NCBI GenBank assembly: GCA_040225955.1
Contig: JBECUL010000045.1
Location: 1-17,358 of the forward strand
Source: Candidatus Asgardarchaeum abyssi
GTDB taxonomy: Archaea > Asgardarchaeota > Asgardarchaeia > Asgardarchaeales > Asgardarchaeaceae
DNA length: 17,358 nt
Direction: 5' to 3'
Position 1 is the first letter of the stretch. Every line of letters starts with the position of its first letter. The position numbers and the translations under genes were made by a program. Under the pieces are notes generated by a model. The model worked only from the letters and a program-made list of their open reading frames with translations. It made no database searches and was not told where the DNA came from. Below are positions 4,329 through 10,847 of this stretch, one piece after another.

Positions 4329-4399
4329 TGTTAAAGCTATTTGTGTTTGAAATAATTAAAAGATATTTTTTATCAGTAGACTCTAACTTAAATTGAATG

Positions 4400-5815
4400 T
4401 TATACATTCTTAGAAATTTCAATTTCTCTACTAACTTTAATTTTCTCCTTTAGTAATATATCTCTCGCTGCAATGACGCCTGAAATGCTTGCTTGCATAA
4501 GGCCTCTTGTTATACCAGCACCATCTCCAATAGTGTATAGATTCTTAATGTATGGACTCTCCATATTGCTTTTTACATCAATGTGTGCTGTATAAAATTT
4601 TGCTTCAACGCCATATAATAAAGTATGTTCACTATATACACCTGGTGCAACCTTGTCTATTGCCTTTAACATCTCTATAATATCAGAAAGATGTCTGTAT
4701 GGAATAACGAAGCTAAGATCACCTGGTACAGCAAGTTTTAAAGTAGGTTCTACAATAGATTTTTTTATCCTTTCTGGTGTGCTTCGTCTACCCATGATTA
4801 AATCTCCAAGCCTTTGAACTATGACAGAACCACCTGATAACATATTTGCAAGCCTTGCAACATGTTTTGCATATTCTATTGGTGATTTAAAGGGCTCTGT
4901 AAAACTACTACTTACCAGTATTGCAAAATTTGTATTGTTGCTCTTTTTATCCCTGTAACTTTGACCATTAACTAAAACAGTATCACTATATACCTCTAAT
5001 GTAACAAAACCATATGGGTTCACACAAAATGTTCTAACTCTATCATCAAATCTTTTTGTAAAGTACTCAAATTTTGGTTCATATAAGACGTTAGTCAGAG
5101 GTTCCATAACCTCTGCTGGGACTTCAACTCTAACTCCTATATCAACTAGGCTCAATTTTAATTTAATACCTAATCGTTTCGCTTCCTCTTTAAACCAATC
5201 AGCCCCTTCACGGCCAGGAGCAACAATTACATACTTTGCGTATACTTTTTCACCATTTTTTAGTTCTATGCCGATGACTTTTTTGTCTTCTGTTAAAATA
5301 CGTTTAACTGGTTTTCTAAAGAAAATATCAATACTTTTGCTTATATGATCATACATATTTCTTAATGCTCTTTGAGCTACTTCGGTACCTAAATGGTTTA
5401 CAGTATATGGTATCAATCTTAAGTCGGCTAAAATCGCCTTTTTTCTTATTTTTTCTACTTCATCCATATCTATTGGATTAGGTGGCTTTATTTTCCCAAA
5501 TCTAGAAAACATTAGGTTAACGTAATTAATTAAATCATCCAAAACTTTATCATCAACATATTCGCTTAACCATCCACCTACTTCCTTACTCAATGTAAGT
5601 TTACCATCACTAAAAGCTCCAGCTCCTCCCCATCCACATAAAAGATGACATGGAACACAACGAATGCATGGTTTTCCCTGAAGAACTTGACAGTGTCTTT
5701 GATCGAGAGGGTTTCCTTTTTCAAAAATTGCTATTTTCAGTCCAGAATTTACAAGTTCTAGAGCTGAGAATATACCCGCAGGTCCAGCTCCAATGATAAC
5801 AACATCATAATTCAC
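4400..5815 (-). CDS. FAD-dependent oxidoreductase/dehydrogenase (COG2509-like)
   Basis: DVVIIGAGPAG Rossmann motif, GWGGAGAFSDGKL, VRTFCVNPYG and IGDGAGITRGL. Cys-rich insert C-x7-C-x2-C-x2-C. GTG start with GGGTGA SD. Confidence 0.88.
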   Translation of the reverse strand: MNYDVVIIGAGPAGIFSALELVNSGLKIAIFEKGNPLDQRHCQVLQGKPCIRCVPCHLLCGWGGAGAFSDGKLTLSKEVGGWLSEYVDDKVLDDLINYVNLMFSRFGKIKPPNPIDMDEVEKIRKKAILADLRLIPYTVNHLGTEVAQRALRNMYDHISKSIDIFFRKPVKRILTEDKKVIGIELKNGEKVYAKYVIVAPGREGADWFKEEAKRLGIKLKLSLVDIGVRVEVPAEVMEPLTNVLYEPKFEYFTKRFDDRVRTFCVNPYGFVTLEVYSDTVLVNGQSYRDKKSNNTNFAILVSSSFTEPFKSPIEYAKHVARLANMLSGGSVIVQRLGDLIMGRRSTPERIKKSIVEPTLKLAVPGDLSFVIPYRHLSDIIEMLKAIDKVAPGVYSEHTLLYGVEAKFYTAHIDVKSNMESPYIKNLYTIGDGAGITRGLMQASISGVIAARDILLKEKIKVSREIEISKNV

Positions 5816-5938
5816 TAAGGTTCACCCAAAAAAGGTAGTTTTTTTATAATTTAAAATTTTTGAAAGAATCGGAGTTTAACGTGCAATTATCTAATTGTAT
5901 GTGCAAAATTACCAAAAAATGTAATAGAAAAATTTTTA

Positions 5939-5974
5939 TTTCTTATATTCAAGTTTTAACTTGAATATAAGAAA
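5939..5974. promoter_or_regulatory. Perfect 17-bp inverted repeat (2-nt spacer), candidate operator
   Basis: TTTCTTATATTCAAGTT-TT-AACTTGAATATAAGAAA, ending immediately before the SD GAGGTGA (5975-5981) of the ECF S-component gene, in a divergent intergenic region. Confidence 0.7.
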
Positions 5975-5986
5975 GAGGTGACTTTT

Positions 5987-6682
5987 ATGTTTGTACCCAA
6001 AAATAAGACTCTAGAGGTTGCATTTCTAGCCGTTATGACCCCATTCGTAACAGTATTAACATATATGTTTATATTTCCAATACCAGAAACTCATGGATAC
6101 TTTAACTTTGGAGAAGTAGGTATCTATATAGCTGCTGCTCTCTTTGGTCCAATTGTTGGTGCATTTGCTGGTGGAGTTGGATCGATGATAGCAGATATTA
6201 TTTCTGGTTATATCATCTATGCTCCTGCAACCCTAATAATAAAAGGAACTGAAGGACTGATTGTAGGATATTTAGTGAGAAAACTAAGAACAATTAATGT
6301 AACTCAACAGCAAATAGCATCTGGGGCTGGCGCTGTCTTGCTTAGCGGGATGGTAATTTCGGTATGGTATTGGACTATTTTACCACTATGGATATGGATA
6401 ATATACGGATTGTTGATAATTACTCTTGTAATATTCTCGCTCATGAAAATAGAAAGGGAAGAGCTACCATTAGTAATTTCAATGGTACTTGGTGGCATGG
6501 TAATGATTTCAGGTTACTTTATATATGAGCAGTTCTACTTAGGCTATCCCGCTATATTTGAATTGCCCTTTAACATAATGCAAATGGTAGGCGGAATAAT
6601 TATCAGCATACCAGTGATAAAAATAGTAAAATTTGCAATTACCAGCATGGGAATATCATTTGAGGTTATAGGAGAAGAGTGA
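5987..6682 (+). CDS. ECF transporter substrate-specific S component (HmpT/PdxU2-like, COG4720-type)
   Basis: GYFNFGEVGIYIAAALFGPIVGAFAGGVGSMIADII.GY..YAPATLIIKG.EG and C-terminal ELPFNIMQMVGG motifs; highly hydrophobic. Start moved to ATG 5987 because GTG 5978 lies inside the SD. Confidence 0.88.
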   Translation: MFVPKNKTLEVAFLAVMTPFVTVLTYMFIFPIPETHGYFNFGEVGIYIAAALFGPIVGAFAGGVGSMIADIISGYIIYAPATLIIKGTEGLIVGYLVRKLRTINVTQQQIASGAGAVLLSGMVISVWYWTILPLWIWIIYGLLIITLVIFSLMKIEREELPLVISMVLGGMVMISGYFIYEQFYLGYPAIFELPFNIMQMVGGIIISIPVIKIVKFAITSMGISFEVIGEE

Positions 6683-8093
6683 TTTCTTCGAATGCCTCAA
6701 GAAGCCTCTTTCCTTTTTCTGTAATTTTGTAATATTTTCTTCTATCTTTTGTAGTCTCATCGACTAACCCTTTCTCTCTAAGTTCTTGCAGATGCTGGTA
6801 AATAGCTTGAAACTTTAAATCAGGCTTTACTTTCTTCCAAATCTCATAACCATATGAGGGACCAAATGTTAAAAATCTAAGAATCTCTATTTTAGTAGAA
6901 ACTTTAGGATATATAGTTTTTTGACCCCGCTTACTAACAAAGGCATCTAAAATATAAGAAGCTTTAAGCCCGCTTCCAGTTACTAAAGCAACTATTTTCT
7001 CATCACCCTCTATAATATTCATCTCTTTTAAAAGCTTTATTGAGGCTATGCCAACAGCACTTGCTGGCTCTGCAAAGATGGCTTCATGTTTTGCTAACAT
7101 TTTTTCAGCTTCAGAGATGCTCTTTTCTTCAACAGAAACAGCCAATCCTTTTGTCTCTCTTAGTATTTTAATTACTAAGTCAATAAATAAAGGCTTTTTG
7201 ACGTATAAACCTAATGCAGAAGTAGGACCCAAACTTTCCGTAGTTTCACCGCTATGGAACTTTGAAACTATAGGAGAACATTTACTAGGTTGAGCTATCA
7301 CAAACTTAGGCATATTATTAATGAGTCCTAAAATCTTTAACTCTTGAAAACCTTTCCAAAGTGATACCAGAGAGCTCCCACTTCCTGTAGGTACTATCAT
7401 TATATCTGGAATCGAACCCAATTGCATGTATATTTCATAAGATATTGTTTTTTGTCCCTCTATTGCTAGTGCATTAAATTCTGGAGTTGCATTATAAGCT
7501 TTTCTTTCAATTGCTATTTTTCTGGAAAAATCAAAAGTATCATCAACAGAATCGCCATGAGTTATTACATTCCCTCCAAATGCAATGATCTGAGCTAGTT
7601 TCCCATAATCAACATTTCTAGGAACCACTATAATGCTTTCAAGTCTAGCTTTTGAAGCATAAGCAGCGATAGAGGCTCCCATATTGCCATTTGTTGAGCA
7701 AACAATTTTAGAATATTTTAATTTCTTCGCAATGGAGACAATTAATGAGGCAGCTCTGTCACGAAAACTATTTGTTGGATTTTTTGTTTCATCCTTTAGA
7801 AATAGGTGAGTAACATTTAATTGCTTTTTTAAATTATTTGCATGAATAAAAGGTGTATTTCCTTCTCCCAAGCTAATACTGCTAATGCTTTGAATTGGGA
7901 AAAAATCCCTAAATGACCATATGGATGAAATTTTCTGATTTGATATTAAATTTAACATTTTTTCCCTTAAATAAGCTAAATCTTTCTTTTCTAAAGAATA
8001 AAACATCAATTTTCCGCATTTCGGACAAATGAAATTTTCGTAATTAATTTCAGAGTCCTCATACCCACAGTTGTAGCATTTCATATAAAACAT
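6666..8093 (-). CDS. Threonine-synthase-like (fold-type II PLP) protein with N-terminal Zn ribbon and C-terminal PadR-type wHTH; Schiff-base Lys replaced by Arg
   Basis: CYNC...CPKC; SLGEGNTP; KDETKNPTNSFRDR (canonical NPTGSFKDR); EGQKTISYEI; VPTGSG; EPASA; VTGSGLK. Then EILRFLTFGPSYGYEIWKK...AIYQHLQELREKGLV...RRKYYKITEKG, a PadR signature. Start may be 8084. Confidence 0.9.
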   Translation of the reverse strand: MFYMKCYNCGYEDSEINYENFICPKCGKLMFYSLEKKDLAYLREKMLNLISNQKISSIWSFRDFFPIQSISSISLGEGNTPFIHANNLKKQLNVTHLFLKDETKNPTNSFRDRAASLIVSIAKKLKYSKIVCSTNGNMGASIAAYASKARLESIIVVPRNVDYGKLAQIIAFGGNVITHGDSVDDTFDFSRKIAIERKAYNATPEFNALAIEGQKTISYEIYMQLGSIPDIMIVPTGSGSSLVSLWKGFQELKILGLINNMPKFVIAQPSKCSPIVSKFHSGETTESLGPTSALGLYVKKPLFIDLVIKILRETKGLAVSVEEKSISEAEKMLAKHEAIFAEPASAVGIASIKLLKEMNIIEGDEKIVALVTGSGLKASYILDAFVSKRGQKTIYPKVSTKIEILRFLTFGPSYGYEIWKKVKPDLKFQAIYQHLQELREKGLVDETTKDRRKYYKITEKGKRLLEAFEEITLLL

Positions 8094-8161
8094 TTGAAGT
8101 CACTAGGCATTTCTTTTTTAAATAATAAAGCAAGTTATCTTATATTTTTTGTTACGAGAGC

Positions 8162-8179
8162 TTGTTTTGTGCAAAACAA
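8162..8179. promoter_or_regulatory. 8-bp perfect inverted repeat between the nrdG stop and the thrC-like promoter (operator or terminator)
   Basis: TTGTTTTG-TG-CAAAACAA. Confidence 0.4.
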
Positions 8180-8188
8180 AATAATTAA

Positions 8189-8893
8189 TCAAACAAAACC
8201 TCTAATAAAAACTGATTTTACATAAGGTTTTACAATTTCTTTAATCTTAAGAGCATCCCTATATGTAAATGGGTTTTGATTCCTAAGTTTCAAATCAAGA
8301 ACATTTTCATTCTCATATTTTTGCAAGTAATATACTTTCGCTCCTTTAATCATTTGGGCTATTTTCTTGAAGTCGTTAATTGAAAGAAGAGGATGTAGTG
8401 TAGTTCGAAATTCATATTCTACACCACTATTCATAACTATTGATATTGATTCACTAATGAGACTTATATCTAAATTTGATACTCCTGTGACAATTGGATA
8501 TTTCTCAAACGGCGCTTTGATGTCCATTGCTAGATAATCTACCAGCTTTTCATTAATTACTTTCTTTAAGAATTTAGGATTAGATCCGTTTGTTTCAAGT
8601 TGAACAAGATAGCCAAGATTTTTCACTTTTCTCATGAACTCTAATAATTGTTCGCCATGAATTGTTGGTTCTCCTCCAGTTATACTTAATGCATCCAGCA
8701 GCCCCTTTCTCTTCTTGAGATATTCCAAGATCTCTTTCTCATCATAAAGCTTCTTGGGGAAATGCTCTGGGATAACTAACTGATAGTTCTGGCAAAATGG
8801 GCACCTAAAGTTACAACCAAGGGTAAATACAACAGCGCTTACTTTGTCTGGATATTCTATTAAGCTGCTACGCTGAAAACCCCCAAATTTCAT
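8189..8893 (-). CDS. nrdG: Anaerobic ribonucleoside-triphosphate reductase activating protein (radical SAM)
   Basis: GCNFRCPFCQN (CxxxCxxC), ITGGEPT, LETNGS, AMDIKAP, YEFRTT. Directly downstream of nrdD. Confidence 0.95.
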   Translation of the reverse strand: MKFGGFQRSSLIEYPDKVSAVVFTLGCNFRCPFCQNYQLVIPEHFPKKLYDEKEILEYLKKRKGLLDALSITGGEPTIHGEQLLEFMRKVKNLGYLVQLETNGSNPKFLKKVINEKLVDYLAMDIKAPFEKYPIVTGVSNLDISLISESISIVMNSGVEYEFRTTLHPLLSINDFKKIAQMIKGAKVYYLQKYENENVLDLKLRNQNPFTYRDALKIKEIVKPYVKSVFIRGFV

Positions 8894-8942
8894 CTTATAC
8901 TTCTCCTATCTTATTTCAAACAAATGAAAAATAGTAAAATGT

Positions 8943-10847
8943 TTACACATATTTCTGAGATGTCTCTGATGGTCTGAGAAGTGTAAATAATTTGTCATAT
9001 GTAACTCTATCTTTGAATTCTTCTTGTTTACCGTCATTCCATTGTTGCACAGGTCTTAAATAGCCTACTACTCTACTATAGACTTCACATTCAACTTTTA
9101 TTCCTAATTCTTCTTCACATTTTGGACAGTAGTAATGCTTGCCCGATAGATATCCGTGTACTGAGCATACACTGAATGTTGGAGTTATTGTAAAGTATGG
9201 TAACCTATAATTATGAGTGATTTTCTTAACTAGATCACGAACAGCCTTCCACGACGGGGCTCTCTCACCTAGATATATGTGTAAAACAGTTCCACCAGTA
9301 TATTTTGTTTGTAATTCATCTTGTAAATCTAAAACTTCAAATATGTCATCCGTGTAGTTAACAGGAAGCCATGTCGAGTTTGTATAGTATGGAGCAGCTC
9401 CTTTTTCTCGTACAGCTTTTTCATTAGCTACAATTATATCTGGATATTTCTTTTTATCTATTTTCGCTAAGCGATAAGACGTACCCTCTGCAGGAGTAGC
9501 TTCTAAATTATAAAGATTATTTGTTTCTATTTGAAATTCTCTTATTCTTTCAAGCATATGATCCATAACTTTTAATGCAAATTTTAAACCTTCTTTGTCT
9601 CCAATAGTGACTCCCATAAAGTTTAATAAAGCCTCATTCATACCTATTAAACCTATTGTTGAGAAATGATTAGCCCAATATTTTCCATACATTTGTTTGA
9701 CTGATCTTAAATAGTACTTTGAATATGGATAGAGTCCCATTTCGGTATACTTTTCAATAACTTTTCTCTTTAATTCAAGACTATCTCTTGCCAATTCCAT
9801 TAAATGATCCAACCTCTCAAAGAAATCATCATCATCTTTCGCCAAATATCCTATTCTCGGCATATTAATCGTAACAACACCAACACTTCCCGTTAATGGA
9901 TTGGCTCCAAATAACCCCCCACCTCTACGGTAAAGTTCTCTGTTATCTAAACGTAAATGGCAACACATAGACCTAACATCTTCAGGATTCATATCAGAAT
10001 TTATAAAGTTAGCAAAATATGGAATTCCGTATTTTGCAGTCATTTCCCATATAGGTCTGAATTTCTCACTCTCCCAGTCAAAGTCCTTAGTTATATTTAT
10101 TGTCGGAATTGGAAATGTGAAAACTCTTCCCTTTGCATCTCCTTCCATCATTACTTCAGCAAATGCTCTATTTATGATCTCCATTTCTTCAATGAAATCA
10201 GAGTATGTTTCATTCATTTCCATTCCGCCGATAATTACTGGCTCATTTGCCATGAACCTTGGAGGTTGTAAATCTATTGTTATATTTGTAAATGGTGTTT
10301 GCCCACCAACTCTTGTTGGTACATTCATATTGTATAGAAATTCTTGCATAGCTTGTTTTACTTCGTTGTATGATAGATTGTCGTATCTTATGAATGGAGC
10401 TAAATATGTATCAAAGTTTGATATCGCTTGAGCTCCGGCAGCTTCACCTTGTAGTGTATAAAATAAATTAACAAGCTGACCTAATGCAACTCTGAAATGT
10501 TTTGGTGGTCTAGATTCAATTTTTCCCCTTGCCCCTCTAAATCCAACTTTAAGGAAATCACGTAAATCCCAGCCTACGCAATATGCAGAAAGCATGCCTA
10601 AATCATGAATATGAAAGTCACCGTCTATATGTGCATGTGCAACGTCTTCTGGATAGATTTCTGTTAGCCAGAATCTAGCAATTATTGAGGAAGAAATATG
10701 GAAATTTAATCCCTGAAGAGAGTAACCCATGTTAGAGTTTTCTCTAACACGCCAATCTAACCGATTAAGGTAAGAGTTAACAAGCTTTGTGACGTCAACA
10801 TTTTTAGTATTATTTATTTTTTCTTTTTTTTCAGTAAGAGTTTCCAT
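8943..10847 (-). CDS. nrdD: Class III (anaerobic) ribonucleotide reductase, without N-terminal ATP-cone
   Basis: DWRVRENSN, HIDGDFHIHDL, FTFPIPT, finger-loop SMCCHL, LEATPAEG, YTGGTVLH, Zn site CSVH...CPKC, glycyl-radical YSRVVGYL. SD AGGTGA at 10854-10859. Confidence 0.97.
   Translation of the reverse strand: METLTEKKEKINNTKNVDVTKLVNSYLNRLDWRVRENSNMGYSLQGLNFHISSSIIARFWLTEIYPEDVAHAHIDGDFHIHDLGMLSAYCVGWDLRDFLKVGFRGARGKIESRPPKHFRVALGQLVNLFYTLQGEAAGAQAISNFDTYLAPFIRYDNLSYNEVKQAMQEFLYNMNVPTRVGGQTPFTNITIDLQPPRFMANEPVIIGGMEMNETYSDFIEEMEIINRAFAEVMMEGDAKGRVFTFPIPTINITKDFDWESEKFRPIWEMTAKYGIPYFANFINSDMNPEDVRSMCCHLRLDNRELYRRGGGLFGANPLTGSVGVVTINMPRIGYLAKDDDDFFERLDHLMELARDSLELKRKVIEKYTEMGLYPYSKYYLRSVKQMYGKYWANHFSTIGLIGMNEALLNFMGVTIGDKEGLKFALKVMDHMLERIREFQIETNNLYNLEATPAEGTSYRLAKIDKKKYPDIIVANEKAVREKGAAPYYTNSTWLPVNYTDDIFEVLDLQDELQTKYTGGTVLHIYLGERAPSWKAVRDLVKKITHNYRLPYFTITPTFSVCSVHGYLSGKHYYCPKCEEELGIKVECEVYSRVVGYLRPVQQWNDGKQEEFKDRVTYDKLFTLLRPSETSQKYV

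Follow-up and report, generated by a model that had tools for sequence, protein, structure and literature searches.

Threonine synthase (ThrC) is an enzyme of pyridoxal phosphate (PLP), and the question raised by the locus described here is what a protein with the body of ThrC might do once it has lost the Schiff-base lysine and gained a DNA-binding domain at its end. The gene in question lies at positions 6666-8093 of a 17,358-nucleotide (nt) stretch of Candidatus Asgardarchaeum abyssi DNA (contig JBECUL010000045.1), which is the whole of the DNA analysed and is called the window below; its product is referred to as P0001. An original prediction, made from the letters of this stretch, took the protein for an enzyme repurposed as a one-component transcription factor, and our analysis supports that view through the loss of the lysine together with the presence of a winged helix-turn-helix (wHTH), through a separate ThrC in the same genome and through the gene context. 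We consider it fairly probable, on comparative grounds, that P0001 is a non-catalytic descendant of ThrC that senses a ligand and regulates, as a repressor, genes of vitamin B6 uptake here and of B6 synthesis elsewhere. Comparison establishes the domain anatomy, the loss of the lysine in the fusion family, the conservation of the cofactor scaffold, the presence of a separate canonical thrC, and the association of the regulator with a palindrome and with the gene for the S component of an energy-coupling factor (ECF) transporter (the S gene), or with pdxST.

A threonine synthase fold joined to a winged helix

The gene is a stop-free open reading frame (ORF) on the minus strand, in which the following parts can be recognised (aa, amino acids; pLDDT, predicted local distance difference test):

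6666..8093, minus strand: regulator gene, P0001 (ThrC fold and PadR domain), stop-free ORF of 475 aa
8004..8084, minus strand: N-terminal four-cysteine Zn ribbon (residues 4-30); invariant cysteines, weak Zn-ribbon Pfam matches
6975..7877, minus strand: fold-type II PLP (ThrC-like) domain, residues 73-373, the proposed sensor; PF00291 (PALP), 4.5e-69
7761..7763, minus strand: CGT codon, Arg111 at the position of the Schiff-base lysine; alignment to solved ThrCs
6906..6962, minus strand: flexible linker, residues 378-396; AlphaFold2 pLDDT below 50
6696..6884, minus strand: C-terminal PadR-type winged helix, residues 404-466; PF03551 and alignment of the wHTH tails

Translation, alignment and Pfam searches agree with the original prediction on the ORF, on the motif NPTNSFRDR (residues 105-113) with its arginine codon CGT at 7763-7761, on the altered STNGN loop, on the retained VPTGSG loop and Zn ribbon, and on a full PadR domain, which scores 2.4e-11 and 43.9 bits against a gathering cut-off of 27. 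No GntR or aminotransferase Pfam match was found in P0001. When P0001 is aligned with the solved ThrCs of B. subtilis (6cgq) and M. tuberculosis (2d1f) by phmmer (E about 1e-48), Arg111 falls on the lysine of NPTGSFKDR; the phmmer search against ThrCs of the Protein Data Bank gives 4e-49, and identity to solved ThrCs is about 30%. Further differences appear where canonical ThrC has ASTGN (P0001 reads VCSTNGNMGAS) and where it has VGNAGN (P0001 reads VPTGSGSS). The Zn-ribbon cysteines C6, C9, C23 and C26 are invariant across the regulators and archaeal ThrC.

An AlphaFold2 model of P0001 (29 relatives; mean pLDDT 88) shows a ThrC-like body, a disordered linker at 378-396 and a separate wHTH with the order helix-helix-helix-strand-strand-helix, and its top Foldseek matches are ThrC structures, with template-modelling scores of 0.83-0.87 by target. 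The arginine is not an assembly error, since codon 7761-7763 is unchanged in contigs from four independent public metagenome runs (at least 99% identity; marine, sediment and hydrothermal labels). The original prediction had already held that it is no single-base error, the codon being at least two substitutions away from AAA/AAG.

Loss of the lysine goes with the fusion

The architecture had been suspected not to be unique, and a scan of one genome per species indeed found a relative of P0001 in at least 587 genomes. Two samples of the family were compared, a close one made up of the 120 nearest database proteins and P0001 itself (121 in all) and a diverse one made up of the best 150 matches of a family profile to 1.84 billion cluster representatives. 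All of the 120 closest proteins, which come from Odin-, Loki-, Freya- and other Asgard archaea and from Bathyarchaeia, combine PALP with PadR, and most of them are named threonine synthase. Arginine stands at the lysine position in 117 of the 121, which makes it a family trait and not a chance event.

In the diverse sample, where counts are inflated by relatedness, a residue other than lysine was found in 68 of the 73 wHTH-bearing representatives with a readable motif (of the other five, two keep lysine and three gave no residue between F and DR), while the 74 representatives without a wHTH have lysine in at least 62 cases and another residue in three (65 readable). The residue tally for the 76 wHTH-bearing representatives runs L 19, R 15, I 15, V 6, T 5, M 4, F 2 and K 2, with S, Y, N, A and H once each and three positions not read. 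The loss of the lysine goes with the wHTH fusion (68/73 against 3/65). The original prediction had raised the narrower possibility that the change from lysine to arginine follows the fusion; here the loss itself holds up, but arginine is not special, leucine and isoleucine being as common or commoner in the wider family. The variety of the replacements argues for a repeated and tolerated loss.

Apart from these fusions, six ThrC-like proteins of 610-627 aa (P0339, P0354, P0357, P0363, P0382 and P0388) have no wHTH and about 200 extra residues. Lysine is present by the strict motif in four of the six, and in P0354 and P0388 by a looser pattern only; the group may represent another fusion architecture of the ThrC fold.

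The old active site keeps its cofactor scaffold

To see what else had changed, we compared 79 regulators with 12 canonical archaeal ThrCs (encoded next to regulators or in the same genome as P0001), as well as the wHTH-bearing and plain halves of the 150 representatives. Within the wHTH group (n=76), G136 and G237 are kept in at least 95%, T372 in 97%, N137 in 91% and F110 in 88%, and D112, R113, G239 and G375 are kept in all 76. These positions belong to the N-P-T-x-S-F-x-D-R loop, the G-N motif, the glycine-rich G-x-G loop and the T-G-x-G-L-K motif, which in fold-type II enzymes hold the ring, the O3' and the phosphate of the cofactor. At the same time, the residues equivalent to R210, N203/S204, T138 and N238/N241 of ThrC are replaced in the regulators and kept in the adjacent canonical ThrCs; in the Thermus ThrC structure these positions hold the O-phosphohomoserine phosphate. 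The arginine of NSxNPxRxEG is alanine in P0001, where relatives show F, L, S or A, the N-S that precedes it is also replaced, the threonine of STGNT has become M or L, and the asparagines of GNAGN are lost (GSGSS in P0001). No new conserved lysine was found elsewhere in the 79 regulators when they were set against the 12 ThrCs. With the cofactor scaffold kept, the substrate-phosphate residues replaced and no new lysine gained, the pocket seems to have been conserved for the cofactor and taken apart as a catalytic site. Judged as a ThrC, P0001 has the fold-type II ThrC fold and lacks both the Schiff-base lysine and the residues that presumably bind the substrate phosphate.

These comparisons bear on the idea that P0001 is still an enzyme, possibly a bifunctional one, which uses another residue or a non-covalently held cofactor, so that the name threonine synthase would be roughly right. 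P0001 does pass the cut-off of the NCBIfam 'equivalog' model NF004170/PRK05638, 'threonine synthase' (425.3 bits against 421), its cofactor pocket is conserved, and a few clades of the family retain the lysine. However, the match runs over model positions 2-442 and includes the wHTH, which means that the model describes the fusion family itself and not a tested enzyme; P0001 is a member of that sequence family, and the family's name is probably a misnomer. Moreover, the lysine position is occupied in relatives by L, I, V, M, T, F, A and others, no conserved lysine compensates for this, the substrate-phosphate site is lost and the genome holds a normal ThrC. We regard a surviving enzyme activity as extremely unlikely.

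The normal ThrC was found in the 2.6-Mb assembly to which the window belongs (93.5% complete), where a Pfam search of the whole genome gave two PALP genes, that of P0001 and one on contig C114. The protein encoded on C114, the separate lysine-containing ThrC for which the original prediction had proposed a check, has 388 aa, a Zn ribbon, the motif NPTGSFKDR and no wHTH, and it passes the thrC models TIGR00260 and PRK06450.

A palindrome in front of a neighbouring transporter gene

The gene that converges with that of P0001, with 3' ends overlapping by 17 nt, encodes an S component of 234 aa, and its upstream region contains the proposed operator (SD, Shine-Dalgarno):

5933..5941, plus strand: TATA-like box TTTTTATTT, abutting the palindrome; read from the sequence
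5939..5974, no strand: perfect 17+2+17 palindrome (36 bp), proposed operator; core 5945-5968, ATATTCAAGTT-nn-AACTTGAATAT
5978..6682, plus strand: ECF-transporter S component, HmpT/PdxU2-like, proposed target gene; PF07155, 3e-29

The likelier start of the S gene is the ATG at 5987, past the GGTGA of an SD-like GAGGTGA (SD and ATG together 5975-5989). No other long perfect palindrome occurs in the window. This one is placed with the TATA-like box on one side and the S gene's SD-like GAGGTGA and ATG on the other, and the usual archaeal promoter spacing from such a box would put the start of transcription inside it, as expected for a repressor site. None of the four metagenome runs shows a change in the core arms (5945-5955 and 5958-5968); the 2-nt centre (5956-5957) reads AA and not TT in all four, which is the reverse complement of the centre, and the outer arm base 5943 differs (T>C) in three of the four. 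The upstream region of the regulator's own gene (8094-8188) contains no copy of the operator and so lends no support to autoregulation through this site. A scan of 5700-8300 against Rfam, with E up to 1, found no RNA family and hence no known riboswitch.

Joint occurrence of regulator, palindrome and S gene

A comparison of 80 loci of other species places a homologue of the S component in the flanks of the regulator in about 60, and in 55 of the 80 directly downstream on the same strand. In nearly every spacer in front of the S gene, a TATA-like box is followed immediately by a palindrome, TAGTATAGTT-nn-AACTATACTA. At loci with an S gene moved away by 0.5-3.6 kb or lying on the other strand (L021, L035, L050 and L074), the palindrome is still found directly before the S gene. 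At L024 the S gene is likewise displaced, but the site falls inside the ORF as called, and it would stand in front of the gene only with a true start downstream of the called one. A search of five genomes of 1-3 Mb with the 22-mer (up to three mismatches) found a single locus in each of the five, before the S gene, and a reversed control gave no matches. Altogether, regulator, palindrome and S gene are found as a set at about 60 loci, which come from several phyla.

The operator differs by lineage, reading CAAGT-N4-ACTTG in the Odin type (as here), TAAGT-N4-ACTTA in other Asgard archaea and ATAGT-N4-ACTAT in Bathyarchaeia, with an AGT-N4-ACT core common to all three. The recognition helix of the wHTH, (A/S)(I/V)YQHL (AIYQHL in P0001), is nearly invariant, and the residues just before it vary by lineage. 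That the shared core should match the near-invariant helix, with lineage-variable residues preceding the helix, is suggestive only.

In two lineages the genes downstream of the regulator are those of B6 synthesis itself. In one Asgard genome (G011, locus L108) a regulator with the motif NPTGSFLDR is followed by pdxS (8e-101) and then by pdxT (1.4e-58), with a gap of 43 nt. At L043, a regulator of the Bathyarchaeia type is followed by a standard operator, which lies in front of pdxS, and then by pdxS-pdxT. The L043 contig (DATHCJ010000024.1) is filed under a Chloroflexota ('Limnocylindrales') metagenome-assembled genome; its regulator sits deep in the Bathyarchaeia clade of the tree, and the contig is probably a mis-binned archaeal one.

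The locus comparison also bears on whether the protein could instead regulate threonine biosynthesis, with the former ThrC active site sensing O-phosphohomoserine or threonine. The domain does descend from ThrC, and 12 of the 80 loci, all from Bathyarchaeia, have a canonical thrC upstream of the regulator and divergent from it (in one sub-clade L007, L014, L030, L042, L046, L047, L049, L060, L070, L073 and L074; NPTGSFKDR, 409-436 aa), an arrangement that may be a trace of the duplication that produced the regulator. Against this, the residues that we take from the Thermus structure to hold the substrate phosphate are replaced family-wide, no intergenic region between thrC and the regulator has a copy of the operator (the palindrome was never seen upstream of either gene in the locus comparison), and thrC of the present genome is on another contig. 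We see hardly any chance that threonine synthesis is what is regulated.

Vitamin B6 as the likely signal

The case for B6 rests on the HmpT-like S gene behind the conserved palindrome and on pdxS-pdxT downstream of the regulator in two lineages. The S component has a single significant solved relative, 4hzu_S (HmpT/PdxU2, 2e-15), for which pyridoxamine was identified as the substrate (PMC4860826), and it keeps four of the six conserved residues of the HmpT pocket (E41, Y120, N140 and Q143). The original prediction had left the ligand between a B6 vitamer and phosphohomoserine or threonine; the gene context favours the former, and the latter two are disfavoured by the missing phosphate residues and by the lack of an operator next to thrC.

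The genome of the window fits a need for B6 from outside. PdxS (PF01680) was not found in the assembly, and because of this the organism probably relies on uptake; the energising module of the S component could come from the nine EcfT genes found at other places in the genome. PdxS was likewise not found in 13 of 20 Asgard relatives searched, which suggests that B6 auxotrophy is widespread in these lineages.

A search of the same genome found a second copy of the operator, ATATTCAAATTATAACTTGAATAT, with one mismatch in the 22 specified bases, the next best site having four:

contig C65, 3273-3296 (L083:3273-3296): second operator copy, between a TATA-like box and the ATG of a radical-SAM gene
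L083:3301-4269, 4346-5167 and 5221-6762: genes behind the second operator, namely a COG0731-like radical-SAM protein, an AP_endonuc_2 (xylose-isomerase-like) TIM barrel and an M17 aminopeptidase

The radical-SAM gene received no specific NCBIfam or Pfam assignment, and its orthologues in other genomes and contigs show neither an operator nor nearby B6 genes. The operon is a possible extra member of the regulon.

Evidence that weighs against a B6-responsive repressor

Several observations do not sit easily with the reading of P0001 as a B6-responsive repressor and count against it. Two concern its scope: about 20 of the 80 loci have no S gene in the flanks that were fetched, and a pyridoxal/hydroxymethylpyrimidine kinase (PF08543) was not found in the genome of the window, so that salvage after uptake is incomplete as read. 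A third is that some regulators retain the lysine, namely one monophyletic Bathyarchaeia clade (11 of 79), the regulator of genome G012 at locus L110 and one Loki representative. On a quick tree (LG+G4, SH-aLRT support, rooted on ThrC) the Bathyarchaeia lysine clade is nested among arginine forms, a suggestion that it reverted to lysine.

Other points concern the cargo. Two of the six HmpT pocket residues differ in the S component (H84 to K and Q87 to E), the protein has an insert of about 60 aa, and carriers of the HmpT type were first predicted to transport hydroxymethylpyrimidine (PMC4860826). The cargo could therefore be something other than B6. In addition, the second operator fronts a radical-SAM operon of no assigned role and without a visible link to B6. 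It is conceivable, then, that P0001 is a regulator of the kind described here whose effector or cargo is hydroxymethylpyrimidine or another thiamine precursor, some other heteroaromatic vitamin precursor, or a PLP-amino-acid adduct. We think this unlikely, given that the sensor retains the scaffold for both the ring and the phosphate of PLP and that pdxS-pdxT follows the regulator in two lineages, in one of them behind the same operator.

The palindrome itself allows another interpretation. Its 3' arm reaches to within 1 nt of the SD-like GAGGTGA, and as RNA it could form a hairpin over the ribosome-binding region; the regulator gene, moreover, has no such site of its own. The palindrome might thus be an RNA hairpin that masks the ribosome-binding site, or the site of another factor, with the adjacency to the regulator gene incidental. 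Such a coincidence is hard to square with the joint occurrence of regulator, palindrome and S gene across so many loci and phyla, with a core that changes with the lineage of the regulator, with the position of the site against the TATA-like box, as is the case for archaeal repressor sites, and with the lack of an Rfam match in the region. It appears very unlikely to us.

A proposed mechanism

If P0001 is a B6-responsive repressor, its ThrC-fold domain would keep a pocket for the ring and phosphate of pyridoxal phosphate without the Schiff-base lysine (now Arg111) and without the residues for the phosphate of O-phosphohomoserine; with these gone and the PLP pocket kept, we propose that the domain is a sensor that binds a B6 vitamer reversibly (PLP, pyridoxamine phosphate or pyridoxine phosphate). 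The flexible linker would couple this sensor to the C-terminal PadR-type winged helix. Both ThrC and PadR proteins are dimers, and a dimer of P0001 would bind the 36-bp palindrome at 5939-5974. When B6 is plentiful, the bound dimer would block transcription of the S gene, as the placement of the palindrome between the TATA-like box and the start codon suggests. The second, near-identical site on another contig would put the radical-SAM/TIM-barrel operon under the same control. In this scheme DNA binding by P0001, repression rather than activation, the dimeric state and B6 as the effector are inferred, the binding from the conserved palindromes beside the proposed target genes.

Neighbouring genes and other repeats

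Upstream on the regulator strand, 95 nt away, lie nrdD (634 aa, PF13597) and nrdG (NrdG2, 3e-58), an anaerobic ribonucleotide reductase pair at 8189-10847, with which the regulator is possibly co-transcribed. Just past the stop of nrdG and upstream of the regulator gene there is a palindrome, TTGTTTTG-CA-CAAAACAA (8162-8179), that might form a terminator-like hairpin serving nrdDG or else be a different operator. The sequence GTGCAAAA is present again at 5900-5907, before the promoter of the S gene. At 5879-5902, about 40 nt ahead of the S gene's TATA-like box, there is an imperfect palindrome, ACGTGCAATTA-TC-TAATTGTATGT, whose sequence is unrelated to that of the main operator.

Implications and comparison with known systems

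Stated at its broadest, our proposal is that archaea from Asgard to Bathyarchaeia and Desulfurococcales control the uptake and synthesis of B6 by an undescribed class of regulator, a lysine-less fold-type II PLP pseudoenzyme joined to PadR that senses the free cofactor non-covalently, and that in the PdxS-lacking genome of the Odin type the same regulator may also run the radical-SAM/TIM-barrel operon, which could be a route of B6 salvage or synthesis. We hold this wider proposal to be evenly poised between right and wrong. No description of a ThrC-PadR fusion or of an archaeal B6-responsive regulator was found in open-access papers and preprints. If the proposal is true, it would add a type of regulator not yet described in archaea, and hundreds of archaeal 'threonine synthase' genes would be misnamed, which distorts metabolic reconstructions by counting threonine prototrophy double and overlooking the regulation of B6. 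It would also be a clean case of convergent evolution, in which a second PLP fold was recruited as a cofactor sensor, and would provide a natural PLP pocket that works without the Schiff-base lysine. The operator motif, for its part, would allow B6 regulons and auxotrophy to be mapped directly in Asgard archaea and Bathyarchaeia that have not been cultured.

The nearest parallel is found in the MocR regulators PdxR and GabR, where the fold of a PLP enzyme is likewise reused as an effector sensor and connected by a linker to a winged helix. The original prediction drew this parallel as well, and it stands as an analogy but not as homology. In the MocR proteins a GntR-type wHTH at the N-terminus is combined with an aminotransferase domain of fold type I, which retains its lysine and holds PLP as an aldimine; P0001 has a fold-type II ThrC domain without the lysine and a C-terminal PadR wHTH, so that the parts are not homologous and P0001 falls outside the MocR family. 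PdxR regulons comprise pdxST, pdxK and the pdxU transporter gene, and MocR proteins have been reported absent from Archaea (PMC5320631). The PdxR regulon genes are of the same kind as the targets inferred for P0001, although PdxR activates pdxST and the position of the P0001 site suggests repression.

With archaeal Zn-ribbon ThrC (EC 4.2.3.1), P0001 shares the fold, the N-terminal Zn ribbon, the PLP scaffold and the level of identity to solved ThrCs given above; it differs in lacking the Schiff-base lysine, in its replaced substrate-phosphate residues and in its extra wHTH. With the PadR family (PadR, LmrR) it shares a PadR wHTH that scores above the cut-off and a palindromic operator, which in the case of P0001 is putative. 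Classical PadR proteins have their wHTH at the N-terminus, with a short dimerisation helix behind it, whereas in P0001 the wHTH stands C-terminal to an enzyme-derived domain of 390 aa. Archaea also have vitamin regulators, RbkR for riboflavin and ThiR for thiamine, in which a DNA-binding domain is fused to a domain resembling an enzyme of the pathway, and RbkR keeps its kinase activity. P0001 differs from these in its vitamin and in its folds, and it appears to be catalytically dead.

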